Below, one piece after another: positions 2,575 to 23,118 of a DNA stretch of 39,936 nt. The notes under the pieces are model-generated. The model ran no database searches. It was not told the origin of the DNA and worked only from the letters and a program-made list of their open reading frames with translations. The position numbers and the translations under genes are program-made. The stretch comes from an uncultured Cytophagales bacterium (GTDB lineage: Bacteria; Bacteroidota; Bacteroidia; Cytophagales; JAAEPT01). The stretch's first letter is position 1; each line of letters starts with the position of its first letter. Location of the stretch: positions 1 to 39,936 of the forward strand of contig CAYGKP010000001.1 of assembly GCA_964350605.1 (NCBI GenBank), given 5' to 3'.

Positions 2575-2694
2575 CTCACAAAAGTGATCCATATGGTAGA
2601 ATTAATACGAATTGAACATTCCCAATTTTAAACCCCTTTTTGTTGCGTACAAATTGAGTGCATATCGAAACAATTGATTTATATGTAATCAAAT
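2575..2694. repeat. Left copy of the ~120-bp imperfect direct repeat bracketing the accessory block
   Basis: Hand alignment to 23119-23237 gives about 17 differences (including 2-3 indel positions) in ~120 aligned nt. Shared strings include ctcacaaaagtgatcc, cgaattgaacattcc, atcgaaacaattgattt and aatcaaat. Weaker similarity continues about 70 nt further left (2507-2574 vs 23043-23118). Confidence 0.75.
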
Positions 2695-2718
2695 TTTAGC
2701 ATTCCTGCTGTGGTACTA

Positions 2719-2880
2719 CTACTCCTCTTCTTCACCTCGGTGCTCTATATCTCGTAAAGGTTCCTCATATATTCTTGGAAGACCCTCATCATCATATATC
2801 GGAAACGACTTCCAGTCTGAAACCTTGTAGTCTTTTAGACCATAATACGGTTGTGCCTCTGAGTAAACATTCCCAGTGGA
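2719..2880 (-). pseudogene. Orphan 3-prime fragment homologous to the C-terminal tail of the 401-aa HExxH protein gene
   Basis: This is 53 open codons with no start codon, bounded upstream by TAA. It reads STGNVYSEAQPYYGLKDYKVSDWKSFPIYDDEGLPRIYEEPLRDIEHRGEEEE*. The 401-aa C-terminus reads TYPGTQPYYGLKDYKVSDWKSFPEYEEDGIPRVYAEPLPGITHP*. The gapless nucleotide alignment 2765-2861 vs 3937-4033 is roughly 75-80% identical by hand count. Confidence 0.6.
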
Positions 2881-3008: not shown

Positions 3009-3404
3009 TTAGTAGACCTCGTCCTCCGAATCATCAAAGAGGCGATAATGCCAAATGCCCACCCTAACTCCTGCTCTGAACCTGCCTGTTTCAGTATACC
3101 TACACTGACAGCCAGCTGTGCTGAAAAAATATGCTCTACCCTGCAAGGAGTCATCTTTGAATCTTAAAAACGCTCCTCTGTGACGGCAGGATACGCAGAT
3201 CATCCTGCCCACATGATCGTGAGGTTTGAGTATCGGGTCATCTGTGTCAAAAACCACAAACGTCCCTTGCCTGAGTTGATTCCGGTCGATATGACCACCT
3301 TTTCTTGGCCAGATTGAAAACGGACTACATGATGACGCGCAAATGGAGATCAAACAAAAAAGTGTCACCTGCCTCATGAAGTCGGATGAGCGGATTATCT
3401 TCAT
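3009..3404 (-). CDS. Small lipoprotein with MORN-variant (YwqK-like) repeat pattern; possibly truncated; candidate immunity protein
   Basis: Track ORF of 131 aa. The N-terminus MKIIRSSDFMRQVTLFCLISICASSCS looks like a signal peptide plus a lipobox-like ASSC. The tail RAGVRVGIWHYRLF has G-x-W spacing. The in-frame TAA (3009-3011) is followed by 39 more open codons (to TGA 2889-2891) reading NRLRYVNGKATSKVGPHFAMAFKYDG..., which continues the Y-x-N-G-K repeat pattern. Confidence 0.6.
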   Translation of the reverse strand: MKIIRSSDFMRQVTLFCLISICASSCSPFSIWPRKGGHIDRNQLRQGTFVVFDTDDPILKPHDHVGRMICVSCRHRGAFLRFKDDSLQGRAYFFSTAGCQCRYTETGRFRAGVRVGIWHYRLFDDSEDEVY

Positions 3405-3439
3405 TGAGGCCAGAGGGACTGCGGAGCACTTGCCATACC

Positions 3440-3967
3440 CTACTGCCCATCACAGTCGCACCCCCTATATCCAGAGAGCCCAAAACCATGATTGTTATTC
3501 TTGTATTGAGGCTTACCACTTTCATAGCTCACCTTGGTCGCGCTACTCTCACCAGTTTTTTGATTTCGCTTCGTCGTTCTCCATGTTCCTATTGGAACCC
3601 CCTTATGATATTGCCCTTCCTGGATAATAACACAATGGTCATCTAACCCGTTAATGAATAATGCTTTCCCATGGGGAATACCGCGTCTGAAGGTGACAAT
3701 TGCTTCAGTAAACACCGTCTGAACCTCATACTTCGGCATATATGATTCTTTCCAAACTGGACCATTGCAGGAAAACCCCTTCATGACCCACACGCCTGTC
3801 GGAAGGCTGTTCTTGTCGTATTGGTTTACTCCACGTCCATAGTCTAGCCGACCACTCGCACAGCAAGTTGCTATTAGCACTGTGAGTGAGCCAAGCAATA
3901 ATAGCTTAAGGGTGCGTGATGCCAGGTAAAGGCTCTGCATAGACTCTTGGGATACCATCTTCTTCAT
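3440..3967 (-). CDS. Small lipoprotein with MORN-variant (YwqK-like) repeat pattern; candidate immunity protein
   Basis: Track ORF of 175 aa. SRTLKLLLLGSLTVLIATCCASG looks like a signal peptide plus lipobox (IATC). Repeat-like strings by eye: PTGVWVMKG, IPHGKALFINGLDD, GQYHKGVPIGTWR, VSYESGKP. The start is uncertain (ATG at 3967, 3958 or 3940), and every option overlaps the upstream gene end (3906) by 35-62 nt. Confidence 0.65.
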   Translation of the reverse strand: MKKMVSQESMQSLYLASRTLKLLLLGSLTVLIATCCASGRLDYGRGVNQYDKNSLPTGVWVMKGFSCNGPVWKESYMPKYEVQTVFTEAIVTFRRGIPHGKALFINGLDDHCVIIQEGQYHKGVPIGTWRTTKRNQKTGESSATKVSYESGKPQYKNNNHGFGLSGYRGCDCDGQ

Positions 3968-5111
3968 ATTCCGGAAACGATTTCCAATCTGAAACCTTAT
4001 AATCCTTCAAGCCATAATACGGTTGTGTACCTGGATAGGTAAAAAGTAAGGTTTCAGCGATTGGATCAGTTGGGTTATACGTATCGTATTTTGCTCGGAA
4101 GCTTCTAGTTGCGGGAAGCAAATACAAAGATTGATCAATCGTTGTATCAGGCAGCTGATGAGTTGAATCCATTTGAGCTTGTAAGGCATCGACCGACACA
4201 CCAAAAACATTAAGAAACTCATCTTTAAAGCTCACCGAAAACTTCCTATCCTTCGGATGTGTATACCACTTTAATATATCCAGCGGGAGTGACGGGCTGG
4301 CTAGCGTTCGATACTCTAATCTTGTATTCAGCTCCGAGTTGATCGGCTTATTGTAGGCCGTTACAGCGTGATATTCAGGCCAATCGATCAGCACATCAGT
4401 CAATGCTTGGTACGGATCTAGATGCCAAGTCTCATGAACTCCTACTGCATTGAGAAACTCCTCCTCACTGCAATTATGAAATCGGCTGTACTTATCATTT
4501 TTCTCCTCTACCCACGTCTCCGTATCCCCAATAGTAACGACAAAGGGCTCAACCGAGAAGACACCACCGGTAAAGCCAAATCGATTGATTTTTCTCCCTC
4601 CTTCCAAAATGACTCCGAACTTTTGTTTGAAGGAGTAAATCCCATACTTCACGGATGGATGTTCTCCAAAATCATCACCCCCTGTAATGAGAAAGTCAGT
4701 ACCTGTTGGGAGCGGAGTGTCGCCCAGCGCTCCCTCGGGTGGTTTTCCACGCCGAAGCCTAATGACCATCGGATGATCCTCCCAAAACTTCCACCTGATC
4801 CGTCCCATGGGTGTTTTGTGCATCGCATCACCGATTTGAACAACACCCTGATCAACGTCACTTAGTGGAGTTGTCGAACTGACATCCTCCTTATCATAGA
4901 AAACTAAGTTCCCTCCAGTAAAAGTGGTTTTTAAAAACCTCCCCCCCGGACCAAACTCTTTTAGACCCGTGTATTTCACCTTATCTGAAAAGACAGGCTC
5001 AATATTGGTCCCAGCCAGGTAAATTTTTGTCAGAGTCCTTCGCTGCTCAACCGTTAAGGAAGAAAGGAAGTTGTTCAGAGCACTCCTTTGTTCATTTGTA
5101 AGGGTAACCAT
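3906..5111 (-). CDS. Hypothetical 401-aa protein with HExxH zinc-metallopeptidase motif; candidate effector
   Basis: Track ORF. HETWH is encoded at 4422-4436 (verified by reverse-complementing atgccaagtctcatg). No signal peptide (MVTLTNEQRSALNNF...). It starts 4 nt after the upstream giant gene stops. Its last ~35 codons are duplicated at 2765-2861. Confidence 0.8.
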   Translation of the reverse strand: MVTLTNEQRSALNNFLSSLTVEQRRTLTKIYLAGTNIEPVFSDKVKYTGLKEFGPGGRFLKTTFTGGNLVFYDKEDVSSTTPLSDVDQGVVQIGDAMHKTPMGRIRWKFWEDHPMVIRLRRGKPPEGALGDTPLPTGTDFLITGGDDFGEHPSVKYGIYSFKQKFGVILEGGRKINRFGFTGGVFSVEPFVVTIGDTETWVEEKNDKYSRFHNCSEEEFLNAVGVHETWHLDPYQALTDVLIDWPEYHAVTAYNKPINSELNTRLEYRTLASPSLPLDILKWYTHPKDRKFSVSFKDEFLNVFGVSVDALQAQMDSTHQLPDTTIDQSLYLLPATRSFRAKYDTYNPTDPIAETLLFTYPGTQPYYGLKDYKVSDWKSFPEYEEDGIPRVYAEPLPGITHP

Positions 5112-5115
5112 ATCG

Positions 5116-8100: not shown

Positions 8101-11100
8101 CTCGGCACCAGCGAGTTCAGAAAGCACGTTGATTCTATTCCCTCTAGCTTCGTATTCAAACAACTGAATCTTCGGATCCTCGGCTTGGGAAAGGCGTATA
8201 AACCGTTGATCGGTCTCCCAACTGTAGCCCTGTGGATCCGTTAGTTCCGTTTGAGAGTCGTCAGCGTTTAGAATGAATAGCCCATAATCGACTGGTTCTA
8301 GACTCGGGCTGTATGGGAGGCGCTCATCCTCCATTGAAGTTGGAAGGCTTAACTGCACATGAGAAGTCTCAAGATTTGCAGGAAAACCAAAAAAAGTACT
8401 GCCTGGATCGGCTCCTGAAGTGTACACGACTGAATAGATGTATCGATTGCCCTCGCTACCGATCAAATTATCTGGTGCGCACAATGTGGGCGCCCAAGCG
8501 CCTCCGCCAAGTGCGGTTAGAGCCGGAGAGAATTGCTGAAGGGCTCCGTCATTCTCGATAGGTGATGAGTCTGCTGCAACCGTACCTTCCTCTTCGTCCA
8601 GTTTCCACCAACCTACCAACCCTTCCGGGTCGATCGATTCGGCGCAACGTCCATACGAGAAATGATCTAACTGCTCCTGACTGCTGAGAGATCTATTGTA
8701 TATACGTGCATGGCTTAAGCAGCCACGATACTCCCTAGAATAGCCATAATCAGAAACGCCCTGAGGCCACCCTCCTAAGGCCAGATAAGCCAAATCGTTC
8801 AATTGTGCAGTCCCCGATCCAACGGGACCTACAAATTGGGTCAACTGATCACTGATCTGGAAGCGCCAGCCCTCACCTGTGCTGGGATTAAATGCTTTTG
8901 TGACGGATATAAATAGCCACTTTGGATCCAAAAAAGAGGGGAACCGAACCTCAGTACCCTGATTACCCACAGAACCGGCATCAAAGGCTAGCGAGTACAC
9001 TACCTCGTCAGCCAGTAAATCAACCCATTTAATAACGCGTACCGCTAGACGCAGCTCAACAGCGAAGTACTGAAACGATGTAACCAGTGCAAATGCGACA
9101 TCACCTTGCTCCCTGATTGTAATTGAGGAAGGGCTTGAGGTTATTCCTTGCCGCATTTCTGGTTTGATCCATATCTCAAAAGTCTGCAGGTTGTCTTCAT
9201 ATGCAGCGTTCGCCGGAATTGACACGCGTTGATCGTCGGCTGAAAAGCACAGCGAATACTTGTTCTCATTGTCAGATATGTCTCCACAAGGTGAACCTAC
9301 CCAAGCTCCTCCTCCCAGTTCTGTCAACTGGTAATTGTAATTCACCAGGTTAGCAGGGTTTTGGATGGTTGAACTGTCGGCTGCCAAGTAACCCTGTGCT
9401 TCGTCCAGTTTCCACCAACCCACAAGTCCAGTAGTGTCAACAGTTTGGGTGCAACGACCCAGCAAGTACTGATCTCGTTGTTCTTGTTCGCTTAGCGAAC
9501 GGTCGTATATCCTGATTTGGCCGATGCACCCGAGATAGTCTTTGTTGTTATTTTGGTAGATGTCATTCCTCAAACCACCCAGATAGATCGGGTCATAATT
9601 ATTGATCCCACCATAGAAAGAGCCTGAGGGTGCTCCCGGCAAAAAGATGGCATCTTGGTCGTTAAGAATTATCCTCCAACTCGCCGGACCAGTCGCCGAA
9701 ATCGATACGAACATCCACTCAGGGTCGTCCTGAGTTTCATACTCACTTTCTAGAGTTTGATAGCTGTTCCCCAATTGCACGAAAACCGAATAGCGCACCT
9801 TATCGACCGTCTGATCATACCATTTGGTACACTGCACAATAAGTCCGGCAGGCGTTCCATTGACTGGATTGTAGGTACTCATCTTAGAGATGAGTACCTG
9901 AGAGGCATAATACAAGTCTGAGAAGTTCACTGGTGGGGCGGTGAACTGTTCATCTAGATCTGGCTTAAACCATACCTCAATTGATTTCGCGTCATAGTAC
10001 TCGTTTCGATGGCCAATGTGAGCCCGATGACCTGCTACGCTCATGCAAAGCGCATAATCCAGTTCTTCCTCTGCCAGATCGGTGTCGATGTAGCCCAAGC
10101 CCAACATTCTCGCGACGTGAAAATCTTGCGCCACCGTTCGGAGCATATCAAGCGAGCTGATCTCTAACGCATTGGCCGCCTCTGGGTCTTCTCCATCCAG
10201 GGTCACAAGTTCCTCGCCCCCGTCCAATGGATAGCTCTTCAACCCGGTAGGGTTCGTGGAGTCCGTGCTTAGTTCAAGGTATTCGATTACCCCTGATTTG
10301 AGACCCTGCGAAGTAGTCCACTTGTCTTTGTAGTTGTCTACCCGCACCCTCGCACCATCGTTGTAGTGGGGCCATCTCTTATCGACCAAAAAGCGCTCGG
10401 GATTCTCAAGGCGCTCGAACACTTCTTCGTTATCCAAGCTCAAAGCAAAAGCCCCAAGCGACTTCCACTTCTCGGCTTCATTGACGGCGTGGAAGTAGGG
10501 CTCGTATAAGACGAAATGAGCTGAATTGACACGGGCATTCTCGGCTTTCCATCGCAAGCCACCGATGTGTTCGCCAAGTAGCTCAATGGTATCTGTAATG
10601 GCGGTCGGGTAGTCTTTAGATTTTCGAAATGCAATACCCGCCTCCAAACTGGGATATGGTTCGCGGTTTACTCCCTCCATGAGAAGAGACCCATTGTCCT
10701 GAGCCTGAACGTTTAGCTTTATGCTGAACGCTCGATCGGGTCGATCCAACCAAAAGACCAATTCATCCTGGTACTGGTCGAAAAAGTTCTGGCGTGTTGT
10801 TCCACTCGCGAAAATGTTACCCCCCACTGAAGCCTCAGCTACCTTATACTCTGACCTGTTGAGGAAATAGAGGTAAATTACGTGAGTGGGGTTGGAACCA
10901 GGTCCAGCCAGTTGAAGCTGGAAGCGCCACTGCATAACGTTTCCCCTACGCAGGACTTGAGGTATCACATTAGGGTCCAAAAGGTCGACCTCCAACGTCG
11001 TTCCGGGGTAAGGGATATATGGCGTGCGATACAATCGGACAAAGTCGTTTTCACGGTTGTACCCGTAGGTAGCTTCGTACTCCTGCTCGCTAGTGAGGTT

Positions 11101-11256: not shown

Positions 11257-11262
11257 AACCGC

Positions 11263-14200
11263 TTAAGGAATCAAAAGGGAAACTGGGCGCGTAACAGCTG
11301 AGCCCTTGGCCACGAACTGGTAGCCGTTGTAGATCATCTCTTGGAAGTGCAGCTCGATTTCATCGAACGGCAAGACATTGTAGGTGGTGGTGATAAAGAC
11401 CTGTGTGCAATCTTTCGAAGGGATAATGACAGGCGTGAATCCAGGCCCAAGATTAGGCTGCCCTGGTAGCGTGATACGCAGGACTTGAGAGAAGATTTGT
11501 TCTCTGGCTCTGGGGTCGCATAAAGGCTCTGGGCTTCGCACCAACATACCATAGGTAAATGATCCGCTTCCCGGAATTCGGAAGATGTTCACTTCGGTCG
11601 TTGTTGGCACTTCCAAGGCATCAAGGCCCAATCCTGCCCGCATTATGCGGTCAAATGTCATTGCATACTCTTGTCGCAAAGGGTCCTCAGGTGCCAGACT
11701 ATCTGCAAGAATCTGTGCCAGCACAGTTTGGTCCTTCTGAATGTGCTCTAAGTTGTAGATCGCCTCTCTCCCCTCTCCAAGGTCTATGCTTCCTATGTGC
11801 TCAGCGAACGAGCCGTAGCGTGACGTTTGAACCGCATACTTGTGGAGCTCATGCTCGACTCCCTCGAATTGCGATACCAGGTGAACCGTGTAGAGCTTCT
11901 CGCGTCTCAAGTCCGGTGGAGAGAGGAAGAAGTAATACCCCTTCTGAAGGTCGAACTGGAACTTTGTACAGTTAGCTCCATCTGGCAGGGAGTTAACAGC
12001 CATGTTGTGGATCACTTGCGTATCCAGAGAGTAGCTGGCTTCTTCCTCACGAATCCAACCATCCGATTCGCTGGTTAAGGAGAGCGACTGATTGGTTTCG
12101 GTTTCCTTAACGATCGCGTCAAGCTTATTGGCCAGTGCAGGGCTTCCCAGGTTGGCAGGCCAATCACCGAACAGATTGTACGTCCCGGGTTGTTTGAAGA
12201 ATACTCTAAGGTCATTGTGACCTTGCTTATAGTAGAGCGGTTTGGCACCAATGAGATTGCCGTCGACCGAGGGATAGGATCGCCCGAAATCCAGGTAGGG
12301 CTTCAATGAATAGAGCCCCTCGTTTTCCAAGTTTTCCAATTCGACTTGCTGAGCCGCCTCGACTGCATCGAAATAGTGCCGTATGGGGCCTCCGGTTTTA
12401 AAACCGAAGACATACGACTGATTGCTGGTATTTCCCTCGACTACATCACGCCCTTCAATTCGTATTGCGTAGGCACCATTCGGTCTCCAAACTGGTTGTA
12501 AAACATTCTGTAAACCGAGTCCGAAATAGGCCAGTTGTTCCTCACGAGTCTCATTGATCTCAACCTGCTGTTCATTGAAACGTCTGGTGGCTTCCGTTTC
12601 CCAACACAGCTCAATTAGAGACACTTCTCGATACTCCGCACCTCCACCAAGCACACTAAGTACTGCTTCCTGAGTCATATTGTCCAAGCCGCCATCAAAG
12701 GTCAAAGTTCGCAAACACGAAGGCTGCAGTCCACATAGCTCATACTGCCAGGCACCTCCATTCAATGCGGTCAGCGCAGGAGCAAAATCTTCAAGTATTC
12801 CATGATTGGCATAGGGCGAACTATCGTGTGCAACTGTGCCTTCCAATTCATCAAGTTTCCACCAACCGATTAATCCTGCCCGTTCGATATCCTCGGCGCA
12901 GCGGCCTCTCCTAAAGTGAGCCAGCTGCTGTTCTATCGAGAAAGCTCGATTGTAAAGTCTGGCTTGCGAAAGACACCCATCGAAGTCTTTGTTGGGTAAC
13001 CATGTGACGAAATCCGGAGAGTTACCCAAATGGATATGTGCCACGTCGACAAGGTTTGATGTGGCAAAGGGTCCAAGCGGATATACCCCAATGACGGGTT
13101 GATCCTGTATCTGGAAGTTCCACTTACTGGTGAAGTCAGTATCCAACTCATCGTTGAACCCAACACCTGAGGCCGAAATGAACAACCATTCCGGATCCTT
13201 GTCAGCTGGGTAACGCAGATCAGGTGGAGGGCCACCTGGAGGTAGCGCTGTACCTGCCTCTACGTAAAATGAGTAGACAATTTCATTGGTCGAACTGTCC
13301 AGCCATTTGATCGTCTTAACAAGCAGACGCAACCAGTTGCCTTGATAAGTCGTGGAAGAGAAAATCGTGAAGACCACCTCACCACGGTCAATCAAGGCAG
13401 TATAATCCGGTGAGCTTGTCACTCCGGTATCCAGAACTGGCTTGGCCCAAATCTCGAAGGCTCGGATGTTATTCTTATAGGGCGTGATCGCCGGGATTGA
13501 GACGCGGTGATCTGGGTCGCTCATGCACAAAGCACCGCCCCTAGCCGGAGGCTCCCCTGGAGGCAAACATATCTCCGTTGCCCAAGCTCCGCCTCCCAAA
13601 GCAGTCAGTGCTGGTGCGAATTGTTGAAGGACTCCGTTATTATCAAGCGGTGAAGAGTCCGCAGCGACTGTCCCCTCCTGCTCGTTGAGCTTCCACCAGC
13701 CAATCAGACCATTGGCTATAATCGTCTGAGCGCACCTCCCCAATTCATATTGAGCCCTCTGCTCAGACTCGAATAGCTCCCGATTGTACAGACGAACTTG
13801 CCCAATACAGCCCAGATATTCTTTGTTATTGTTGGCGAAAATGTCTGAGCGAAGGCTTCCAATAAAGAGCGGCTGATCATTCTCAACACCCAAGTATAAT
13901 CCACCAGCTGGACCAGAGGGGAATGAGTAGGCGGTCTGGCTGTTGATGATAATTCGCCAGCTTCCGTTGAAAGCTGCGGAAACGAAAACCCACTCGGGGT
14001 CCTCAAGTTGTTCGAACTCAACCTCACGATTCGCATAGTGGCTACCCATCTGTACGAATACTGCATACTTGACTTTATCGGTCGGTTGATCTAACCATTT
14101 AGTCACAGAAATGACTATACCATTTGGTAATTGGGTCGGGCCCGATGCGGACATTTTCGAGACGACAATTTGTGAGGCTTCGTATAGGTCGAAGTAATTG

Positions 14201-17200
14201 GATGGAGTCGCAGTGAACTGAGGATCAACCTCAGGCTTAAACCATGCTTCGACGGTTTTTACATCCAGGTACTCCGCGATATGTCCAACTTCAACCTTCT
14301 GACCTGAAGCATTGAAACACAGGGAAGTTCCTTCTTCTATCAACGGCAAGCCTTCCTGCCCGCCACACGTTTCTTCTACCCAGGCACCGCCGCCAATTTG
14401 TGTGCGGCCACTCGTGTAACCGGTCAGTACGCCATCTGAGTTTGTCCATGCCAGCCCCGAATTGGTCGCCTGGGTTCCCTGTAACTCGTCCAGTTTCCAC
14501 CAGAGACGAAGGTTCGTAGTATTGGCATTCACTGCACAACGTCCCCCTTCATACTGATCATCAATCTCTTGGGCGGAGAGAACAAAATCCTGGTAGTACT
14601 GGATGTGATCGACATACCCCTCAAAGTCTCCCTCTCCGAGGATGATTGGGCCGTCGTTGTATACATCTCCGGGTGTTCCTGTCGACTCTGACACCCACGT
14701 TTCAACTGAAGGCTGACCGTTTACAGTCAAATAGTAATCGGCTAGTTGAGTACCTGTTCGCTGAACAGTGATCATGTGCCAACCTTCAGCCTCCGCAACA
14801 ACAAACCTCTTGACGATTCGGATGTGTCCGTTCCAACGGTTGTTGTAGTGAAGCTCGACAAACAAGCTATATCCAGATGCCTGAGTCGGAGCCAGAACGG
14901 TCCGAATAGTAATCCCATGACCATCGGAGGCCATCTTCTTGAATAACACTTCCAAGTGGTCGTTGATATCTTGACCTACCTGTCCATTGACTAGCGTCTC
15001 ATCAATCGGTGTCTGCTTCAACCATGCAACGATCGAAAAAGAGCCGCCGAATGTGAACCCACCATGGTTGGGGCTTGCAACTTGTACAGACTCCCCAACT
15101 TGAATGTGTAGTGCAGGCGAACTCTCCTCTTCGGTTTGTAGACCGCAAGGGTCGACCCTGTATGTCAAACGATAAGCCGTCACCGGTTCGGGAAACCGAA
15201 TCGAAACTGTCATCGGCTTTTCCAACTCGTCCTCTTGGAGTGCTACAAGTGCCTCCGTTAAGTTGGTGCCAGGGGCATACTCAGACTCCTCTTCGACTAC
15301 TTGAATGGCCTTACGGCTTGAGGCAGATGGAATGTCGATTTTGATCCAGGCCTTCCGATCAAACTTCCATTCGCCCTCGCGATAGCGTCGGAAGCCGTTG
15401 GATTGGCCTTGCCAGTTCAAGCACTCCCAGTCGACCAACGGCTGGGTACAAAACATCAAGCTCGCATTGAGGCCATAGTCCTCAACGATATTGGTCTCAT
15501 CAGGTCCGGTACCCTGACTTAAGAAGGCAAAGGGGTTTCTTGCAAGAATTCGCAGATGTGTCTTTTGTCTTGGCTGCTCATGTGCCTGCCAAGCACCGAT
15601 ATGCAATAAGCTTGCTGGGACAGAATCTAGGAAGGCTTTGATCGGCAATGCCTCGTATGGGTCATATGGCACCCAAATATCCCCGACAGGGTCGCGGGTA
15701 AGAATTTCAACTTTGTCGAGGTGAAAGCGATGTTGAACTTGGTCGGAATGCCCTCTACGAGGAGAAATCTTTACCACATTATCGGTCGGAACGAACCTGC
15801 CTGTCATTCTTGACAGTACTGGATCTTTGCCCTTCGGCTTTAGACTATAATTAAATTGGATATCGACGAAGCTATCCTGCGGAATGATCGTCTCTTCGAG
15901 CAAGTCAAACCAGGATTCCTCAAGTGCACTTCCCAGATAAGCGATGGGAAACTCCTCTAGCGTTGTCATGTTCAACGCCTTCACTGCATTGCTCGGCTCA
16001 AGAATCTGGAATGGCTCAAGTTGGCGTCGACGGTCGAACACCCATCGAAGCGAAACTCGGATACCTTTCTTCTTCCGCTTAAACGGAATCTTGATCTTTA
16101 CCTCAATGTACCCTTCGATAATGAAAGGTCTGGGTGCTTCCGCTCCCAAATAGGCCCCCACTCCAAATCCGAATCTGAATTTCCAGATTCCGATTTCTAG
16201 CCCCCCGGCGATTAGAACGTGACCACCAGCTTGAACGGGTTCGGTGCTAATGCGCACGCCCATATCCAGGTAAGCATATAGTCGAAAGCGAATCGGGCCA
16301 AAACGTTTATCAAGATTGAAACTTGCACCTGCGCCCAAAGCCACCCCTCGAGCTGAAAGCTGCAGGTATGCATTCAAATTGAATACTCGGAGTATTCTGG
16401 CACGGATTCGCTTGGAGGGCGGGCTGGCCTCACCAATGTTGAGGTACCACCCCCCCGGATTCTGAAAGAAGAATCCGAACTCCATGTTGGCGGAAATATC
16501 GGCGATCACGCCGCTCGACTGTGGTAATCGAGCCTGAACACCAGCACCACCGGTAATTGACTCTGGGCTAACAGCCAAAAAGGCACTGAAAGGCGGGTCC
16601 TCTCGATCATCCAATCCGACCTGTCGACGGAGAATACCCGCTTGACCTTGGAGCAGTAAGGTCTCGGGAGCGGTTAGTAGTAGGAATACTTTGCTTGAGA
16701 AAATTCGAGGGTCTCCTTTTGTGGCAATTGCTGTGCCCGCTCCTCCTACAAAGCCTGGCTCTTTTGAGAACTTGTCGACGGTGATGCCCTCTTTCGGCGG
16801 GGCTTTGTAATACTGCCACCAACTTGCTGAGTCCGCTAAGCCAATGGCCGATTTATCAGCGATGTACCCACTGCCGACTAGGCCTCGAAAGCCATAAATT
16901 CCTAGCCCCGTCGGACCTAGGGGAATTGGAGTTGGTAAATTGATTTTTGCATCGACTAGAAAAGAAGGATCATCTGGGACGTACGAAATGTCACCTTCAA
17001 ACTTGAGCTTCAAGCGAGGAAAGCTAACACCGACGGCTCCTCGATACTCACTAACCGAGCCTCCTTGCTCCTGGCCAAGTAGGGCCAAATACCCCTCAAT
17101 AATCGCAAGAGCTTGCTCTTTAGAGGCCGTGCCAGGGATAATTAGGCGTATCTCAAGACGTTGAATGCGAAGGAATGAGTGGAAAGCCTTTCCGGCACCT

Positions 17201-19056
17201 GCATCGGTATCAATTGTGAAAAAGAACTGGATGCCATCCCCTCGGACGTCTAATCCCGCTGGCTGAAGATTCAAGCTTCCATCAAAACCGAAATAGGCGT
17301 ACTGTCGAAGTTGGCCTTCATGATCTTGTTCATAGGTCCCGAGTGTCAACGCGCTGACCTGTATTTTGGCAGGGCCCAGTTTCAAGTCGAACGTGCGCGG
17401 CAAAAGCTGTACGCCGCCATCGAACTCAATCCTGCCATTCGAGTAGATGCGTAGTTTGGAGATCGGAATCTTACCAGGGAGCAACTTATCGGCAAGTCCA
17501 CCAGGGACAGGAGCTGTGATCTCCAGCTCCCCAGCTACTTCAAGAGCATAGACCTCGCCGAGCTTTTCCAGAGAAAGACTACGAAGAGTAAGCTTGAAGA
17601 CTTCGTTCTCTTCCGAGGGGAAAGAAAGCACAAGCCCTTCTGGCTCAATAGCTGCGAACGTAAAATCCCCGTTTTCGAAAAACTGAATGGTAACCTCCAA
17701 CTCCGCGGGATTCCCTTCTGAGTCTTTAACATTGAAGTTCTCCGGAAAATTGAGCGTGGCTCTGGCGGAAGAGCGCACCAGACTACCCTGACGAAACTCC
17801 ACCTCAGCTTCTTTCAACTCCAGACCGAAGCCACCTAAGGTCGCATCGTAGGAGTCATATTCATCCTCACCTACTACCCGAGTTTCCAGTCCGATCGTCC
17901 CACTGAAGCCACCTGAGCCGATGATGAGATTACGCCCTTTGAGAATGGCTTGCTCCGTAGGGTTCCCATTCTGCGTTAGGATAGGCGGAAACCCAACTTC
18001 GATCTCCTCGATGAAGACTCCTCGGAAGTCAGCCGGATAACCTGCATCCTGAATGGGTTGAATATTGGTAGTTCGGGAAAGGTCTAGCCAAACATTGTCG
18101 ACTTGAAAAGTGAAGCCCGAGTTACCGATTTGAACTGTAGGGCCAGAAACTCCCTGGTCAGTATCGATACCCGTTGTGACCTGAGTTGACTGATCAATGC
18201 CGAAGCTGCCACGTGTGTCAAAAGTGAATTGAGCGGGCTCTGTTCTCAGAACATACTTAGACGGCTCGGCGTAAGGTTCGCCGCTTGGCTGAAGCGGCAG
18301 TAAAAAGCTTCGAGGAATGGCAACCTCCAAACCAAGTGAAGTGCCCGCCCTTACTCTCGGAACTAGCATCTCCTGCAAACGGCTCAAAATTGGCAGTCCT
18401 CCTCCGTCGTAAAGGCGATTGATGGCATCAAGTCCGCTCGACAGATCGGAAGCAGGCAGCACGTAGATCGTAAAGAGTATCTCCCGAACAGACGGCAGCG
18501 ACCCACTCGCGTCGATCTGTGCTATTAGGTCATCTATCTGGTCAGAAAGCTCAGTTGCTGACGGCATGGATACCGAGCTACCCCCGTATTCTGCATTGAT
18601 TTTATTGACTAGGCTTTGAACATCCTCAGAGAGCTCAATCTCTAAAACCGCGTTGGTCAGCAAGCGCTCGTCTAGCGGATCGGTTACTGTGAGCAGGAGG
18701 TCGAAAAAGGACTGCGGCGAGCCATCGAAGCGCGAAAATTCGAAGTCGTCGAAGTAGCGGAGGATCTCCCAATCAAACTGAAGGGTGAGGTCGAATTCGG
18801 TGGTGTTGGGAAGGGTGCCGGGATTAATGGAGAATTCCAGATCGAGGCCGGGAACCGTGAAGCCAATGTTCTGGAAGGCGATGAGTTGGACGTAAAAGGA
18901 ACGCGTTGACCCGGCGGTGTTGACGAATTGAATCTCCTTAACAAAGAGGTTCGGGATCAGCGCATCAAGCCCTCCGTCGATGAAGCTCAGGGCCTCGGGC
19001 AAATCGTCTGCAGAAAGCAGCGAGGTGACAGGTAGGTAGTTGTGGGTGGAGGGCAT
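11263..19056 (-). CDS. Giant hypothetical protein (2597 aa): ~1300-aa beta-rich N-terminal region of unknown family, three LamG modules, ~490-aa C-terminal region
   Basis: An uninterrupted 7.8-kb ORF. The LamG array covers aa ~1320-2110 (nt 12727-15099), with repeated ...R(L/I)YNR..S..EQ...GRCA...GLIGWWKL(D/N)E..G..A.DSS...GGGAW...C. The N-terminus MPSTHNYLPVTSLLSADDLP has no signal peptide. The start ATG (19054-19056) overlaps the upstream stop as TAATG. No catalytic or NTPase motif was recognised. Confidence 0.9.
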   Translation of the reverse strand: MPSTHNYLPVTSLLSADDLPEALSFIDGGLDALIPNLFVKEIQFVNTAGSTRSFYVQLIAFQNIGFTVPGLDLEFSINPGTLPNTTEFDLTLQFDWEILRYFDDFEFSRFDGSPQSFFDLLLTVTDPLDERLLTNAVLEIELSEDVQSLVNKINAEYGGSSVSMPSATELSDQIDDLIAQIDASGSLPSVREILFTIYVLPASDLSSGLDAINRLYDGGGLPILSRLQEMLVPRVRAGTSLGLEVAIPRSFLLPLQPSGEPYAEPSKYVLRTEPAQFTFDTRGSFGIDQSTQVTTGIDTDQGVSGPTVQIGNSGFTFQVDNVWLDLSRTTNIQPIQDAGYPADFRGVFIEEIEVGFPPILTQNGNPTEQAILKGRNLIIGSGGFSGTIGLETRVVGEDEYDSYDATLGGFGLELKEAEVEFRQGSLVRSSARATLNFPENFNVKDSEGNPAELEVTIQFFENGDFTFAAIEPEGLVLSFPSEENEVFKLTLRSLSLEKLGEVYALEVAGELEITAPVPGGLADKLLPGKIPISKLRIYSNGRIEFDGGVQLLPRTFDLKLGPAKIQVSALTLGTYEQDHEGQLRQYAYFGFDGSLNLQPAGLDVRGDGIQFFFTIDTDAGAGKAFHSFLRIQRLEIRLIIPGTASKEQALAIIEGYLALLGQEQGGSVSEYRGAVGVSFPRLKLKFEGDISYVPDDPSFLVDAKINLPTPIPLGPTGLGIYGFRGLVGSGYIADKSAIGLADSASWWQYYKAPPKEGITVDKFSKEPGFVGGAGTAIATKGDPRIFSSKVFLLLTAPETLLLQGQAGILRRQVGLDDREDPPFSAFLAVSPESITGGAGVQARLPQSSGVIADISANMEFGFFFQNPGGWYLNIGEASPPSKRIRARILRVFNLNAYLQLSARGVALGAGASFNLDKRFGPIRFRLYAYLDMGVRISTEPVQAGGHVLIAGGLEIGIWKFRFGFGVGAYLGAEAPRPFIIEGYIEVKIKIPFKRKKKGIRVSLRWVFDRRRQLEPFQILEPSNAVKALNMTTLEEFPIAYLGSALEESWFDLLEETIIPQDSFVDIQFNYSLKPKGKDPVLSRMTGRFVPTDNVVKISPRRGHSDQVQHRFHLDKVEILTRDPVGDIWVPYDPYEALPIKAFLDSVPASLLHIGAWQAHEQPRQKTHLRILARNPFAFLSQGTGPDETNIVEDYGLNASLMFCTQPLVDWECLNWQGQSNGFRRYREGEWKFDRKAWIKIDIPSASSRKAIQVVEEESEYAPGTNLTEALVALQEDELEKPMTVSIRFPEPVTAYRLTYRVDPCGLQTEEESSPALHIQVGESVQVASPNHGGFTFGGSFSIVAWLKQTPIDETLVNGQVGQDINDHLEVLFKKMASDGHGITIRTVLAPTQASGYSLFVELHYNNRWNGHIRIVKRFVVAEAEGWHMITVQRTGTQLADYYLTVNGQPSVETWVSESTGTPGDVYNDGPIILGEGDFEGYVDHIQYYQDFVLSAQEIDDQYEGGRCAVNANTTNLRLWWKLDELQGTQATNSGLAWTNSDGVLTGYTSGRTQIGGGAWVEETCGGQEGLPLIEEGTSLCFNASGQKVEVGHIAEYLDVKTVEAWFKPEVDPQFTATPSNYFDLYEASQIVVSKMSASGPTQLPNGIVISVTKWLDQPTDKVKYAVFVQMGSHYANREVEFEQLEDPEWVFVSAAFNGSWRIIINSQTAYSFPSGPAGGLYLGVENDQPLFIGSLRSDIFANNNKEYLGCIGQVRLYNRELFESEQRAQYELGRCAQTIIANGLIGWWKLNEQEGTVAADSSPLDNNGVLQQFAPALTALGGGAWATEICLPPGEPPARGGALCMSDPDHRVSIPAITPYKNNIRAFEIWAKPVLDTGVTSSPDYTALIDRGEVVFTIFSSTTYQGNWLRLLVKTIKWLDSSTNEIVYSFYVEAGTALPPGGPPPDLRYPADKDPEWLFISASGVGFNDELDTDFTSKWNFQIQDQPVIGVYPLGPFATSNLVDVAHIHLGNSPDFVTWLPNKDFDGCLSQARLYNRAFSIEQQLAHFRRGRCAEDIERAGLIGWWKLDELEGTVAHDSSPYANHGILEDFAPALTALNGGAWQYELCGLQPSCLRTLTFDGGLDNMTQEAVLSVLGGGAEYREVSLIELCWETEATRRFNEQQVEINETREEQLAYFGLGLQNVLQPVWRPNGAYAIRIEGRDVVEGNTSNQSYVFGFKTGGPIRHYFDAVEAAQQVELENLENEGLYSLKPYLDFGRSYPSVDGNLIGAKPLYYKQGHNDLRVFFKQPGTYNLFGDWPANLGSPALANKLDAIVKETETNQSLSLTSESDGWIREEEASYSLDTQVIHNMAVNSLPDGANCTKFQFDLQKGYYFFLSPPDLRREKLYTVHLVSQFEGVEHELHKYAVQTSRYGSFAEHIGSIDLGEGREAIYNLEHIQKDQTVLAQILADSLAPEDPLRQEYAMTFDRIMRAGLGLDALEVPTTTEVNIFRIPGSGSFTYGMLVRSPEPLCDPRAREQIFSQVLRITLPGQPNLGPGFTPVIIPSKDCTQVFITTTYNVLPFDEIELHFQEMIYNGYQFVAKGSAVTRPVSLLIP

Positions 19057-19544
19057 TACTTCACAGTTCTTAGTGAGTCAACGTAATCATGCATTGAGAC
19101 CATTAGATTCTTGGACATAATGACTATTATACCTCCACTTTCTTTCTCATATATGTTTATATACCTGTAGTCACTTTCTAAATATATTTTTGGACTATAC
19201 CTTTTCTCAGATAGTATCCTGTACCTGAAGTGTGAGATATCACAACTATCTCTTATAAGGAAAGAGTTAATATATCTTCCTTCCGCATTTAGGTACTTCC
19301 TTTCTGTTATTTCTGAAAAACAAGGAGTAACAAATTGAAAATATATATCGAAATGTCCATCCCACTTATCAGGGACCCAGCTTTCGTCTCCCTTTTCGTA
19401 ATTTCTAGATACTTCAACCACAAATACAGTATCTGTGCTAGCCAACCTTTTATTATATACTAATCCATTGCTAGAGTTTTCTAGGTAAAAAACCTTAACC
19501 TCATGACAGGAGGACAGGATAAGTAGTATCGCAAAGTATTTCAC
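19056..19544 (-). CDS. AT-rich small lipoprotein (162 aa); candidate immunity or partner protein for the upstream metallopeptidase module
   Basis: Track ORF. MKYFAILLILSSCHE looks like a short signal peptide plus lipobox LSSC. Sample 60-nt lines here give about 35-37% G+C by hand count. It starts 5 nt after the 1052-aa gene ends. Its stop shares one nt with the giant gene ATG. Confidence 0.75.
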   Translation of the reverse strand: MKYFAILLILSSCHEVKVFYLENSSNGLVYNKRLASTDTVFVVEVSRNYEKGDESWVPDKWDGHFDIYFQFVTPCFSEITERKYLNAEGRYINSFLIRDSCDISHFRYRILSEKRYSPKIYLESDYRYINIYEKESGGIIVIMSKNLMVSMHDYVDSLRTVK

Positions 19545-19549
19545 TCGAA

Positions 19550-22500
19550 CTAATCAGTATCTGTAACCGGGTATCGGTATGCAATCAAATTATCAAACAT
19601 CTGTTTGAACTGAATTGGAGAAAACCTCCGGTTCTCAACTGCAGTTAGCGGAGGAGAGGGGTACATCATATTCTCGTACTGATCAACAAAATCAGTATTA
19701 CCAACTGTCAAATTCTTATTGTACTCAGAATGAGGCTTAATATCGGATATGTTCTCAGAAGGCGGAACTGAGGGCGGACTAGATAAGTAAAAATTCTGAT
19801 TCAGCTCATAGCTATCCTCAGTATCCCGCTTGTTTAAATAGTACAACCTCTGATTACTTAGTGGTTGGCCAAATACCTCGTCAAATTGTTGACTAGAAGT
19901 GCCAGATCTCCTACCCATTTGAGTGTGCAGAGTATGCTTTAATCCAGCCACATGTCCGAGTTCGTGATAAACAGTATACCGAGCAATATTAGTATTCAAT
20001 AGCGGATGTGAGGTGGCAATTCCACCAATTGAATGTAAGTTGATTAGTGCTGGTCCAAGGTCTTGATCTTTGATAAGATCATACCCCTCCTTGGCAAGAT
20101 AGAAGGCAGGAAATGGCCCTCCATTTGTTGAGAACGGTATGCTAAGTTGTATAAGATTGTCTACTGGTGCTTTCAGTATCGAAAGGCCTCTGGTCCCAAT
20201 CAACTCCTCCCTTTCTGCGGGATAATCATAGCTACCATCTCTCGACTTCTTAGCTAGCAGATCGTTTACCTTCTCAGTTGGATGTCTCTGTCCAATATTA
20301 TGAACCCATGGGGAACGGCCCTCCACGATATTAAGATCATCCTTTAAGAAAGTCTTTCCTTGAGATTCTATGTAAGTCTTTGCATTATTTATCTTTTCCA
20401 AATCGATATCATCATCATTAGCAAAATTCTCGACGAACAAAACGGACAATGAAAATGTGCCAGCCAGTAGGTCATGAGCAATTTCTTCAAAAGTATCTAC
20501 CACTTCTATTTGATCAATCAAATATCTTATCCTGTAATTTTTTCCCTCATAAGTAGCAGTAGCTAGGTCTGGCAAATATTCAAATGTGCTTTCAGTATCT
20601 AATGGTTCTTTGCATTGCTCTTCCAAGAAATCCACTGGATCAAACTCTATACTTGTATAGTCCTTCATGGGTGCATCTTCGTTTGGAAGACGATTATAAA
20701 TGTATGTAGGCTTGTGAACATATACCTTGCCAATTCGGACGAAAATAACTCTCTCTTCATTCGGCTGACCTTCATTCTGGATATAAGGCCAAATCCCAAT
20801 GTATTCATTCGAGCTCTCAGGATCTACAAGCTTCCATCCTACTCCATGAACTGAACGCGCTCTTGGATTGTAATAGGCTACGTGCCAATTGGCTGTCAAA
20901 GAGGATATTTCAACAGCATTATCTGCAATCCATTGAGAGTCAATCTCCAGGCTAACAATAGAAACTTGCCTGGTAAGTATACCGTCCTGGTCAAGTTGTG
21001 AGAACACAAACAAGTGCTGTAGGCCCAATAAGCTTGGCACTTGATGAGGCGAAAGAACCAAATCGCTACTTTCCAGATTCCGGAGAAAATTATTCTGATC
21101 TGAAAATGCCGGAAGAGTAAGATTGTACTCAGGTCCAACTAAAGTCGACCACTTAAAGCCCTCTGTGGGTGATAGCAAGTAATGTATCTTGTCCTCCTCT
21201 ACGACAAGAACAGTAGAAACAAAACCAGAAAAACCCAACTCTTCCATTCCATCAACAAATCGTTGATAGTGCAGATTTGCTGTCTGAAACCTAGGCTTAG
21301 AACTCTCAGAGAAGTCCCATGGAATCACATCGCTAATTACCTCTGGAAGTACGAATGTGTTGTCGAGGTAGTAGTTAGCATTAATCACAGGAGAACTCTT
21401 AGGCGGCGCGACCTTCTCCGGGTCGATCCGCTGGATGTAAGACAACTTCACATAACTGGCAATCGAGTTACTGCCTGCAGCCGCAGTGGCCAGTTCGATC
21501 TCATCGGTCCAACCACTCGTAAACGTTGGCTCGATGTACCTGGCCTTGTGACGCGGCACCTCCGGGAAGCGCTTGTAGGGGCTCGCTCCATCCAGATAGA
21601 CCAAGGGCTTGGTGTTGTCGGCCTCTGGTAAAGAGAGGCGTATGTGCGTCTTGCTATTTGCAACCCCCGAACTCAACTCCGAACCCTCAATGATGTGAAT
21701 CGGCCAGTCATTGCTTAGGTAGGCTCGCCCCGAAGGGGCCGTGTTCCCATCGAATGATAGATTGACGTTGACGTTGTAGCCTGCGTAGCTACTATAGTTA
21801 CTGTAGTAGTTGAGGCTATAGCTGTTCTCATTCCGAATGTCCAGATACACCCGGCCGGGGTGAGCGAACTTGGTCAACACGTCGGTGTAGAGGTCTTGAT
21901 CAGTCAGGGTCGAAACCGTGGAACCCTGCAAAACTCGAACACCACTACGTGCGTGAAGGCCATAGAATGCTGCGGGGTCGATGTAGTGAATCACCTTCTC
22001 CCTCGCCGCACGGTTCTCCAGTGCGTCAGTTGCGTCTTGAGGCGTAGCGATCGTTGGGGCGGCCGTAACGGTAACCAGGCCATCAGAAGCCCGCAGCTCC
22101 CCAAGCGTAGGATTGCTCCCATATGCCTCCAGAACGATTTCAAAACCAATCTCGCTGCTGGCCGCAAACTCACCCAAAGTCTGGCCTGCTCGAACACGCG
22201 TCGGCTTGAACGCTGTTAGATGGTTAAAAAAAAGTGCGTCGATCTTCTCAGAATCAAGCTTTTGATCGTCACCAGTTGCCGATGCTGTGAAATGCAGCCC
22301 CAGTGTTTCTTCGGTTGGATCAACCTTAGCGACACCCAAAGCGTCTGCATAAGCTGCCTGGTTCTCGTGTAACTGTGCAGCCAAGTCATTCGCTGTTGTC
22401 AGCACGATCGCCCCTGAGCCTTGGACTAAACTACTCTTCGCAACACCCCTGTAGACAAAGTACTTGACCCGAAAAGGCAGGTGAGGATTGTGATTAAATG

Positions 22501-22708
22501 GTTTGATAACAAGGTTAAGCAGAGTCGAGGACTGCTCTTGAGCGTACAGCAATCCTCCTACACACGCGATCACTGGTGCGCCTTGACCCGATGATACTGT
22601 ATGCTTGGACGATAAATGAAATTCAGTACTTGAAGCGGGCCCATAGGCCTGGCCAGTGCTTTGCACATCCAGTAAGCTGGGGTCGGTAAAAAAGTAGGGC
22701 TTGGCCAT
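19550..22708 (-). CDS. Chimeric 1052-aa protein: GC-rich N-terminal ~430 aa of unknown family + AT-rich C-terminal ~620 aa ending in a metzincin-type zinc metallopeptidase motif
   Basis: Track ORF. HELGHVAGLKH (HExxHxxGxxH) is encoded at 19934-19966 (verified by reverse complement). Composition changes near 21350-21450. Sample lines give about 58-63% G+C at 21.5-22.1 kb and about 33-43% at 20.4-21.3 kb. No signal peptide (MAKPYFFTDPSLLDVQ). Confidence 0.85.
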   Translation of the reverse strand: MAKPYFFTDPSLLDVQSTGQAYGPASSTEFHLSSKHTVSSGQGAPVIACVGGLLYAQEQSSTLLNLVIKPFNHNPHLPFRVKYFVYRGVAKSSLVQGSGAIVLTTANDLAAQLHENQAAYADALGVAKVDPTEETLGLHFTASATGDDQKLDSEKIDALFFNHLTAFKPTRVRAGQTLGEFAASSEIGFEIVLEAYGSNPTLGELRASDGLVTVTAAPTIATPQDATDALENRAAREKVIHYIDPAAFYGLHARSGVRVLQGSTVSTLTDQDLYTDVLTKFAHPGRVYLDIRNENSYSLNYYSNYSSYAGYNVNVNLSFDGNTAPSGRAYLSNDWPIHIIEGSELSSGVANSKTHIRLSLPEADNTKPLVYLDGASPYKRFPEVPRHKARYIEPTFTSGWTDEIELATAAAGSNSIASYVKLSYIQRIDPEKVAPPKSSPVINANYYLDNTFVLPEVISDVIPWDFSESSKPRFQTANLHYQRFVDGMEELGFSGFVSTVLVVEEDKIHYLLSPTEGFKWSTLVGPEYNLTLPAFSDQNNFLRNLESSDLVLSPHQVPSLLGLQHLFVFSQLDQDGILTRQVSIVSLEIDSQWIADNAVEISSLTANWHVAYYNPRARSVHGVGWKLVDPESSNEYIGIWPYIQNEGQPNEERVIFVRIGKVYVHKPTYIYNRLPNEDAPMKDYTSIEFDPVDFLEEQCKEPLDTESTFEYLPDLATATYEGKNYRIRYLIDQIEVVDTFEEIAHDLLAGTFSLSVLFVENFANDDDIDLEKINNAKTYIESQGKTFLKDDLNIVEGRSPWVHNIGQRHPTEKVNDLLAKKSRDGSYDYPAEREELIGTRGLSILKAPVDNLIQLSIPFSTNGGPFPAFYLAKEGYDLIKDQDLGPALINLHSIGGIATSHPLLNTNIARYTVYHELGHVAGLKHTLHTQMGRRSGTSSQQFDEVFGQPLSNQRLYYLNKRDTEDSYELNQNFYLSSPPSVPPSENISDIKPHSEYNKNLTVGNTDFVDQYENMMYPSPPLTAVENRRFSPIQFKQMFDNLIAYRYPVTDTD

Positions 22709-23118
22709 TGCGGAGATAACGTTCGATGGCGATCAAACCGTATTAGTGTAGTTCAATCGACCCAACTATGATATCGAATTCTGCCCCTAGGACAACTTCA
22801 CTATGTTAGTGTTAACAATATAATAACATTAGCTACGCAAATATCCTTACTCTAATAAGTAGGAGGCTAGGGATTATGCCTGTGTATGTCCAAGGAGGTA
22901 CACATTCAATATTGTCGGCTACCAACATTTGGAGAAGTGGCTCAAAACCGCTGAGGCCTCACTCTGAAAGAGTTGATCGTTATGAGAAAGCCATCTTTGT
23001 CTACCCTCGCCCATGGCCAGATACGAGGAGGCCATAAGCGAATGGGTCTAGTCATATGATGGGCAGCATGAAAGCTTGGAAATGATTCAGGACGTATCCA
23101 GATCATTTTTGGAGATCT

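Follow-up and report, generated by a model that had tools for sequence, protein, structure and literature searches.

In this work, we analyzed a 39,936-nt stretch of DNA (hereafter the window) from an uncultured Cytophagales bacterium (contig CAYGKP010000001.1 of assembly GCA_964350605.1) and focused on an operon of seven tightly packed open reading frames (ORFs) on its minus strand. A first-pass annotation, made from the letters of the sequence, had described this operon as a candidate toxin- or effector-delivery locus with two giant LamG proteins, two proteins with zinc metallopeptidase motifs, and three small lipoproteins. Its coordinates, gene lengths, and junctions were all reproduced. 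The four large proteins are designated A, B, C, and D, and the genes are as follows:

22708-19550, minus strand: A, 1052 aa
19544-19056, minus strand: 162-aa gene, lipoprotein-like; candidate immunity protein for the A cargo
19056-11263, minus strand: B, 2597 aa, giant core protein
11256-5116, minus strand: C, 2046 aa, giant core protein
5111-3906, minus strand: D, 401 aa, variable; candidate second effector
3967-3440, minus strand: 175-aa gene, lipoprotein-like; candidate immunity protein
3404-3009, minus strand: 131-aa gene, lipoprotein-like; candidate immunity protein

Based on the ORF coordinates, the junctions from A to the 131-aa gene are +5, -1, +6, +4, -62, and +35 nt, and a TAATG overlap that joins the 162-aa gene to B can be read directly in the sequence. 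The -62 nt junction probably overstates the true overlap, since other in-frame ATGs follow within the 175-aa ORF; Met10 of this ORF sits ahead of a hydrophobic segment, and the real start is probably an internal ATG. The ORFs of 2597 and 2046 codons are kept in more than 140 genomes, which is far beyond chance.

Comparison with related loci revealed a conserved core of three components, namely, the N-terminal part of A (A-N) and the two giants B and C, each without its LamG insert. The scan of 185,579 species genomes (one genome per species) yielded at least 144 relatives of B; 80 loci from named genomes were fetched out of these, and 84 loci were compared in total. When the seven proteins were compared by local BLAST with every ORF in the fetched loci, the following conserved pieces emerged: aa 1 to ~460-500 of A, aa 1 to ~1250 and ~2130-2597 of B, and aa 1 to ~450 and ~930-2046 of C. 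None of the loci has anything that corresponds to the LamG blocks, the C-terminal half of A, D, or the three small proteins (162, 175, and 131 aa). Nearly all of the 80 named-genome loci have the order A-N, zero to four variable genes, B, and C. A-N is kept in ~70 loci and always lies upstream of B, and C is in every case the next gene after B. The median gap is 12 nt between B and C (67 loci) and -1 nt between A and the gene that comes after it. Furthermore, only ten relatives emerged when 5.8 billion clustered proteins were searched with aa 1-1300 of B; two of them carry faint matches to PF20248 (DUF6603), and the contigs of these relatives share a layout of a large protein, a small protein, a B-like giant, and a C-like giant. 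The A-N/B/C core is a stand-alone, ordered, and tightly coupled unit with swappable cassettes across phyla. The expectation from the first-pass annotation that the giant pair would be conserved while the peptidase and lipoprotein modules vary was borne out by this neighborhood comparison. The same annotation had missed A-N, the third component. It had also described the giants as LamG proteins; the pair is indeed conserved, but the LamG modules are lineage-specific inserts that are absent from the homologues.

All-against-all clustering of the loci found no fourth conserved gene family, and therefore the system has no conserved ATPase, secretion, or lysis gene. Across the family, A, B, and C lack signal peptides. 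Most carriers are Bacteroidota (Flavobacteriales, Sphingobacteriales, Chitinophagales, and Cytophagales), and other carriers are assigned to Kapaibacteriota, Acidobacteriota, Alpha- and Gammaproteobacteria, and Planctomycetia. Because many carriers are metagenome bins, some of these phylum assignments could be binning errors. Cultured carriers include Mucilaginibacter, Mesonia, Chryseobacterium, Kordia, Tenacibaculum, Aquimarina, and Asticcacaulis. The core stands alone in unrelated genomic neighborhoods across several phyla. Two genomes have two copies each (L008 and L016; L017 and L019), these paired loci being from one Bacteroidota and one Kapaibacteriota metagenome-assembled genome. In locus L023 (Pelobium sp.), there is a tandem arrangement of A, a small gene, a B fragment, A, a small gene, B, and C.

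Within the window, the only Pfam matches in the seven proteins are LamG modules. No domain of the RHS, PAAR, sheath, tube, ATPase, integrase, or transporter type and no C-terminal sorting domain (CTD) of the type IX secretion system (T9SS) was found in the block with Pfam, NCBIfam, PHROGs, or PADLOC, in line with what the first-pass annotation had noted. The seven proteins matched no PADLOC model, and PHROGs matches were confined to LamG junctions. Por_Secre_tail is absent from all seven proteins and present in two flanking genes. Sequence searches of the PDB with A, B, C, and D were empty, as were PDB profile searches with the family alignments of B, A-N, and C. A, B, C, and D contain no signal peptide or hydrophobic segment, which agrees with the claimed absence of Sec-type signals in the four large proteins; these calls and the lipobox calls below come from our own crude screen of hydrophobicity and lipobox patterns, not from a trained predictor. 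The operon has exactly two HExxH motifs in 6564 residues (0.13 expected), one in A and one in D.

Protein A is divided into two parts:

21200..22708, minus strand: A-N, aa 1 to ~460-500 of the 1052-aa protein; third core component, proposed cargo adaptor
19550..21199, minus strand: variable C-terminal part of A, low GC, with HELGHVAGLKH; candidate metzincin-type effector domain

The AlphaFold2 (AF2) model of A-N, which was built from 16 sequences, has a predicted TM score (pTM) of 0.79 and is confident for residues 1-430. No significant structural neighbor of this model was found in the PDB or in a viral structure library. The coherent matches are weak (probability 0.80-0.87, E > 0.1) and consist of M23/LytM-type domains and tail-associated lysins, and a weak resemblance to a baseplate hub protein was also observed in the structural search. 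Within A-N, the stretch VRAGQTLGEF...EIGFEIVLE resembles an M23 core from which the histidines are missing. Given these weak structural matches and the lack of any invariant histidine across the A-N family alignments, we rejected A-N as an M23/LytM peptidase, for which HxxxD and HxH ligands would be expected. At most, and only as a lead, A-N may include a LytM-like subdomain that has degenerated and is non-catalytic. With a concatenated single-sequence query, 15 homologues of A-N were retrieved but none of C. A word-index search with a 66-sequence A-N alignment returned only three proteins; in our interpretation, this search was swamped by chance word matches. PF27118 (PA0049_N) appears in the precomputed annotations of the A proteins of P0012, P0019-P0021, P0024-P0026, and L001. 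If PF27118 corresponds to A-N, then A-N-like domains exist in Pseudomonas aeruginosa PA0049, outside the system; our literature search on PA0049 found nothing relevant.

The C-terminal part of A has an extended zinc motif, HELGHVAGLKH (HExxHxxGxxH), at aa 915-925, with a chance expectation of 1.8e-4. A possible Met-turn (MMYP) lies ~105 aa downstream of this motif, which is unusually far. This domain has no Pfam match, and one relative (P0028) shows weak metzincin-family matches at its C-terminus in the same relative position as the A motif. For D, no family match was found in Pfam, NCBIfam, PHROGs, or PADLOC. We do not accept D as a zinc metallopeptidase because its HETWH aligns with REPYH in the sole marginal relative and a bare HExxH is weak evidence. 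Of the two zinc metallopeptidase motifs that the first-pass annotation had proposed, the one in A was thus found to be extended, while the one in D is present but did not hold up in the alignment.

The giant proteins B and C have the following features:

16036..18357, minus strand: beta-hairpin region of B, aa ~234-1007, ~45 antiparallel strands; DUF6603-like
12697..15159, minus strand: LamG insert of B, aa ~1300-2120, about three units; lineage-specific
8479..10053, minus strand: LamG insert of C, aa ~402-926, two units; lineage-specific, paralogue of the B insert

The AF2 model of B aa 1-1200 was built from 11 sequences and has a predicted local distance difference test score (pLDDT) of 67.8 and a pTM of 0.37. 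In this model, a mixed N-terminal region is followed by a helical stretch and then by ~45 long antiparallel strands at aa 234-1007, where the pLDDT is mostly 70-88. Foldseek matches of the model in the PDB are the ApoB100 beta-belt, LptD, SlpA, and pilus ushers (E 6e-6 to 1e-3, TM ~0.1), which indicates an architecture class, i.e., a very large predicted beta-meander sheet, rather than homology. No Rhs/Tc, phage, or type VI secretion system (T6SS) folds were among these matches. The B of the window does not match PF20248 at E <= 1. Two relatives, P0001 and P0005, align with collinear parts of PF20248 and reach 26.2 and 26.3 bits, respectively, below the gathering cut-off of 27. In addition, positions 236-1001 of the B-family profile align with a protein that NCBI annotates as DUF6603 (E 6e-109). 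These sub-threshold relatives and the profile match suggest that B is a distant DUF6603 relative that falls below the family cut-off. The hairpin region of B is collinear with the DUF6603 profile in the relatives, and compared with that family, B has additional conserved N- and C-terminal regions and the LamG insert. DUF6603 itself is a family without assigned function or literature; our search for papers on DUF6603/PF20248 found none, and a general query on polymorphic toxins, Bacteroidota, and LamG returned nothing relevant.

For the LamG inserts, Pfam places Laminin_G_3 at aa 1601-1765 of B (41.9 bits), and in the C insert, it reports both Laminin_G_2 (aa 490-583) and Laminin_G_3. In B, the LamG units start with WWKL[DN]E at aa 1516, 1784, and 2062. 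The B insert (aa ~1578-2108) and the C insert (aa ~402-926) are 48% identical over 535 aa, which points to one lectin-type module copied between B and C. Outside its LamG insert, C has no Pfam, PDB, or profile match. Near the C-terminus of C, there are repeated motifs of the Y-x-Y-R-[LV]-V-A type, and this pattern suggests Ig/FN3-like modules.

The modules that accompany the core are diverse among the related loci. A-N is located at the N-terminus of proteins of 650-1,800 aa or inside proteins of ~2,700 aa. Among the domains fused to it, S8 subtilases were found in 10 of 68 segments and C15-like domains in 7 of 68. P0022 has an M23 domain with a weak GH19 match C-terminal to A-N, and P0024 has an Amidase_2 domain N-terminal to A-N. 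The genes between A and B are highly diverse and encode, among others, EndoU nuclease, RNase_T, PETase-like hydrolase, PG_binding_1, OmpA, MORN_2, WG repeats, and leucine-rich repeats (LRR), and 40 of the 69 small genes in this position look exported. Genes after C are heterogeneous, and many are probably mere neighbors. One recurrent form of A has ~2,600-2,800 aa, with a ~1,500-aa N-terminal extension containing S8, then A-N, and then a ~600-aa C-terminal part that is often C15-like (L009, L010, L021, L040, and L069; P0014-P0017, P0020, P0021, P0025, and P0026). The recurrence of this S8/A-N architecture suggests a fixed functional variant rather than random cargo. In other loci, a short A (~650-740 aa) precedes a separate gene of ~950-1,400 aa from one of two recurrent families, the first in L011, L020, L022, L042, L044, L051, L063, L075, L078, L082, and L084 and the second in L050, L060, L062, L077, and L079. 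No Pfam domain recurs among the ~950-1,400-aa genes that were scanned, and such genes may encode cargo that is not fused to A, or else an optional fourth component.

In the window, the small genes directly follow both variable proteins, A and D. The 162-aa protein has a lipobox-like N-terminus MKYFAILLILSSC (LSSC after a hydrophobic segment), and the 175- and 131-aa proteins have lipobox-like LIATCC and ICASSC, respectively, also after a hydrophobic segment. With a lipobox cysteine after a signal-like segment, all three are putative lipoproteins, as had been proposed. The 162-aa protein has no homologue in the 84 loci, and the 175- and 131-aa proteins are weak paralogues (E 2e-5). Base composition changes along the block. 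A-N, which takes up the first ~470-500 codons of A, has a GC content of 0.50-0.56. The value falls to 0.36-0.43 for the rest of A and the 162-aa gene and is back at 0.52 from the first codons of B onward; the drop begins where A-N ends and is over where B begins. GC is low again (0.40-0.48) in a second cassette after C, namely, in D (0.43-0.48 by itself), the 175- and 131-aa genes, and the DNA beyond. Three further features lie around these cassettes:

2740..2868, minus strand: orphan 3' fragment, the last 43 codons of a D-like gene
23097..23240, no strand assigned: upstream copy of a ~145-nt repeat, in the 757-nt intergenic region ahead of A
2552..2698, no strand assigned: downstream copy of the ~145-nt repeat, which closes the low-GC block

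The orphan fragment is 67% identical to D over 43 aa (tblastn, E 2e-15), has in-frame stops upstream, and lacks a start codon. At the DNA level, it is repeat D1, which spans 117 nt with 77% identity to 3911-4027. We regard it as the scar of a displaced cassette. The composition-shifted 3' modules and the orphan fragment that the first-pass annotation had pointed out were therefore both recovered. The ~145-nt imperfect direct repeat has ~83% identity and sharp ends in pairwise alignment, and its two copies, the only ones in the window (0 expected), bracket the whole block. The upstream copy holds a terminator-like hairpin on the minus strand, and beyond the downstream copy, the GC content climbs from 0.40 to 0.52. 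The repeat was not found in a metagenome collection. This pair may be an att-like site or the edge of an island, or it may stem from duplication of an intergenic region, and it may mark insertion of the block as a unit.

Distant relatives of B were found outside the loci described above. Mycetohabitans megaplasmids encode a 2,337-2,496-aa B-like protein with a ConA/LamG-type module. Its gene is preceded by a phospholipase D (PLD) gene and by the gene of a 1,322-aa protein that has a ~190-aa C-terminal module common to the C family (HHalign probability 94%). In Haloferax mediterranei, plasmid pHME322 encodes a 1,858-aa protein that aligns with part of the B profile (E 1e-33); the second gene downstream of it encodes a protein with a genuine Baseplate_J domain (E 2e-12). 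This locus (L088/L090, record positions 168387-183076) encodes the 1858-aa B-like protein, a 1370-aa protein, the 1142-aa Baseplate_J protein, a small protein, and a MoxR ATPase. The middle protein was rejected as a C-like partner (HHalign probability 2.5%). A halocin-H4 gene lies ~10 kb from this B-like locus.

The genes flanking the operon in the window are ordinary and include a small CBM9 protein, a HerA-like ATPase, two T9SS cargo proteins, DinB, a glutaminase, and a pair of radical-SAM and methyltransferase genes. From these flanks, the host is a Bacteroidota-type organism; exact matches to the window's proteins come only from two sequencing runs and one NCBI record. The 246-aa CBM9 protein (23466-24206, minus strand) is encoded directly upstream of the operon, and its gene was judged to be outside the system because other loci do not conserve it. 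One of the T9SS cargo proteins (25867-30306, minus strand; 1479 aa) contains two CBM9 domains, a glucose/sorbosone dehydrogenase domain, Ig, CBM96, and a C-terminal sorting domain. An 820-aa ORF with a GTG start (30970-33432, plus strand) overlaps the DinB gene (30427-31662, minus strand) and is probably a high-GC artefact. On the plus strand, a gene for a radical SAM protein with a DUF3641 C-terminal domain adjoins a SAM-dependent methyltransferase gene (37664-38722 and 38535-39701), a pair which we take to resemble the arsS/arsM arsenic-modification genes. No tRNA or Rfam family was found within the window, and scans for sigma-70 promoters and terminators were uninformative; Bacteroidota promoters lie outside the scope of the tool.

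We favor, with slightly less than even confidence, the reading that this block is a polymorphic toxin/immunity locus built on an undescribed delivery scaffold, the products of which would be exported and toxic. In agreement with this reading, a conserved N-terminal part is combined with variable modules (A-N in ~70 loci, with differing modules), a displaced cassette lies downstream (the fragment at 2868-2740), and recognized toxin-family domains (M23, Amidase_2, EndoU, and PLD) occur in relatives, albeit none of them in the C-terminus of A or in D of the window. Two further findings were counted in its favor: the structural neighbors of B aa 234-1007 are only membrane barrels and lipid-binding belts, and lectin-type inserts recur in distant B-like proteins. 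In such a system, A-N would be the adaptor through which a variable enzyme is attached to the B-C scaffold, and in the window, this enzyme would be the metzincin-motif domain fused to the C-terminus of A-N. The long amphipathic DUF6603-like hairpin sheet of B could be a membrane-interacting or translocating element, and the LamG inserts together with the repetitive C-terminal modules of C could recognize the target surface. The three small lipoproteins would shield the producer's own envelope, and D with its two lipoproteins would form a second cargo/immunity cassette attached after C. Since there is neither a Sec signal nor a conserved secretion gene, release may be autonomous or may occur via lysis or vesicles.

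Several results weigh against the toxin/immunity reading. Across the family, no trafficking domain, signal peptide, or linked secretion gene was found that would provide a link to an export pathway. Among 1.84 billion representative proteins, A aa 570-1052 has no homologue, and D has a single marginal relative and no real one; because of this, we infer the toxicity of the A C-terminal domain and of D purely from one motif and from position. The small proteins of the window match no known immunity family in Pfam or NCBIfam. Confidence in the B model is moderate (pLDDT 67.8, pTM 0.37), and its Foldseek matches have a TM of only ~0.1. In addition, S8, which is the commonest fused domain overall and occurs in a recurrent ~2,700-aa architecture, could be a maturation protease rather than a toxin.

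Beyond the toxin/immunity reading, A-N/B/C may be a self-contained delivery machine with no kinship to contractile injection systems, to Rhs/Tc cocoons, or to any of the numbered secretion systems; we give this proposal a substantial, though clearly less than even, chance. The B sheet would insert into or wrap the target membrane, C would give reach and binding, and A-N would load the enzymes; such a machine would have spread horizontally over at least five bacterial phyla, with a B-like relative in a haloarchaeal plasmid. An unlikely alternative is that the proteins form a degradative or predatory complex, extracellular or on the cell surface, or a Tc-like toxin against eukaryotes, in which the B-C scaffold presents hydrolases via lectin-like modules. 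The dominance of peptidases among the recognizable fusions (S8 and C15-like at the frequencies given above, M23, and Amidase_2), the LamG and ConA-like inserts, the mostly environmental Bacteroidota carriers together with one fungal endosymbiont, and the presence of three large proteins with one variable tip, which recall Tc toxins, are all consistent with this alternative. However, the adjacent genes for small exported proteins or lipoproteins, MORN_2, WG, and LRR suggest self-protection, which is needless for feeding, and EndoU nuclease cargo acts inside cells. The T9SS CTD route is the normal export of degradative enzymes in Bacteroidota, and both this CTD and signal peptides are absent here. 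Moreover, neither Pfam nor Foldseek with the B model revealed an RHS or TcA/TcB domain or fold.

The lack of export signals in all core proteins and the frequent protease domains would also fit a system of intracellular conflict or defense (e.g., anti-phage abortive infection), in which the giants would sense infection and release or activate protease effectors within the producing cell. Neighboring genes lend this idea some support: McrBC-like and SLFN-helicase genes occur in L004, BREX adjoins P0010, nSTAND genes lie downstream in two loci, and toxin-antitoxin genes surround the Mycetohabitans copies. We nonetheless consider it improbable, as no PADLOC model was matched, the core has no NTPase or nucleic-acid-sensing domain, the M23 and Amidase_2 cargo and the exported or lipoprotein partners point to the envelope, and the lectin-type inserts suggest an external ligand. 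Less probable still is a remnant of a phage-tail or contractile-injection baseplate, with B and C as extremely diverged wedge- or fibre-type proteins. The position of the pHME322 B-like gene near Baseplate_J and the weak resemblance of A-N to tail-associated lysins and a baseplate hub protein are the points in its favor. On the other side, no sheath, tube, gp25, baseplate, VgrG, PAAR, or spike genes were found in the window or in the 84 loci, and no sheath, tube, gp25, VgrG, or PAAR genes within 34 kb in Haloferax, where the middle protein is not C-like. There was no tblastn match in 50,697 phage records and no relative in IMG/VR, and the PHROG matches lie on LamG junctions only. Phage origin was rejected on the basis of the phage-record, IMG/VR, and viral structure searches, and no search (PHROGs, Foldseek, phage records, and IMG/VR) placed the giants in a known tail or baseplate family inside a prophage, the outcome that would have contradicted the first-pass annotation.

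If the toxin/immunity reading is true, the locus would represent a new way to deliver interchangeable enzymes against neighbors with three core genes and independently of known secretion machines. It would also provide a first function for DUF6603 and for two further unannotated families and would explain a class of giant "hypothetical" genes. The carriers span environmental and host-associated Bacteroidota, some Proteobacteria, and Acidobacteriota, and the cultured ones allow direct tests of the idea. An ordered three-protein module that occurs across phyla and has an adaptor without recognizable fold is worth solving even if it turns out not to deliver toxins.

Compared with known systems, the locus differs from T9SS cargo in that the seven proteins have no C-terminal sorting domain and A, B, C, and D have no signal peptide. 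It resembles contractile injection systems in being large, multiprotein, and free of signal peptides and in the proximity of the Haloferax B-like protein to Baseplate_J, but unlike these systems and phage baseplates, it has no linked sheath, tube, or spike genes and no relatives in phages or IMG/VR. It also shares features with the Tc (ABC) toxins of Photorhabdus and Yersinia: three large proteins without signal peptides are encoded in one operon, one protein of ~700-1100 aa is conserved in its N-terminal part and ends in a hypervariable enzyme, the giants carry receptor-binding-type inserts, and the core encodes no release route. In contrast to Tc toxins, no RHS cocoon, SpvB, or TcA-type domains were found with Pfam or NCBIfam, the gene order differs, and immunity-like genes are present (Tc toxins target eukaryotes and have none). 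B was also rejected as a Tc/Rhs cocoon, as its model matched generic beta-barrel and belt proteins and no Tc subunits in Foldseek.

The framework of polymorphic toxins, which covers Rhs/YD, CDI, and T6SS with PAAR/VgrG adaptors, is reportedly the work of Zhang, Aravind, and colleagues. Unlike polymorphic toxins, the locus has no RHS/YD, PAAR, VgrG, LXG, filamentous haemagglutinin, or other known trafficking domain; the conserved A-N has no structural neighbor and always occurs with two giant partners, and the enzymes can be on either side of this adaptor. Shared with them are an N-terminal part that is conserved while the enzyme tips attached to it vary and are shifted in composition, small genes directly downstream that look protective, and an orphan 3' fragment, and M23, Amidase_2, EndoU, and PLD are found at equivalent positions in the relatives. 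The locus thus follows polymorphic-toxin logic without the delivery domains of polymorphic toxins, on a core that matches no characterized family or solved structure.

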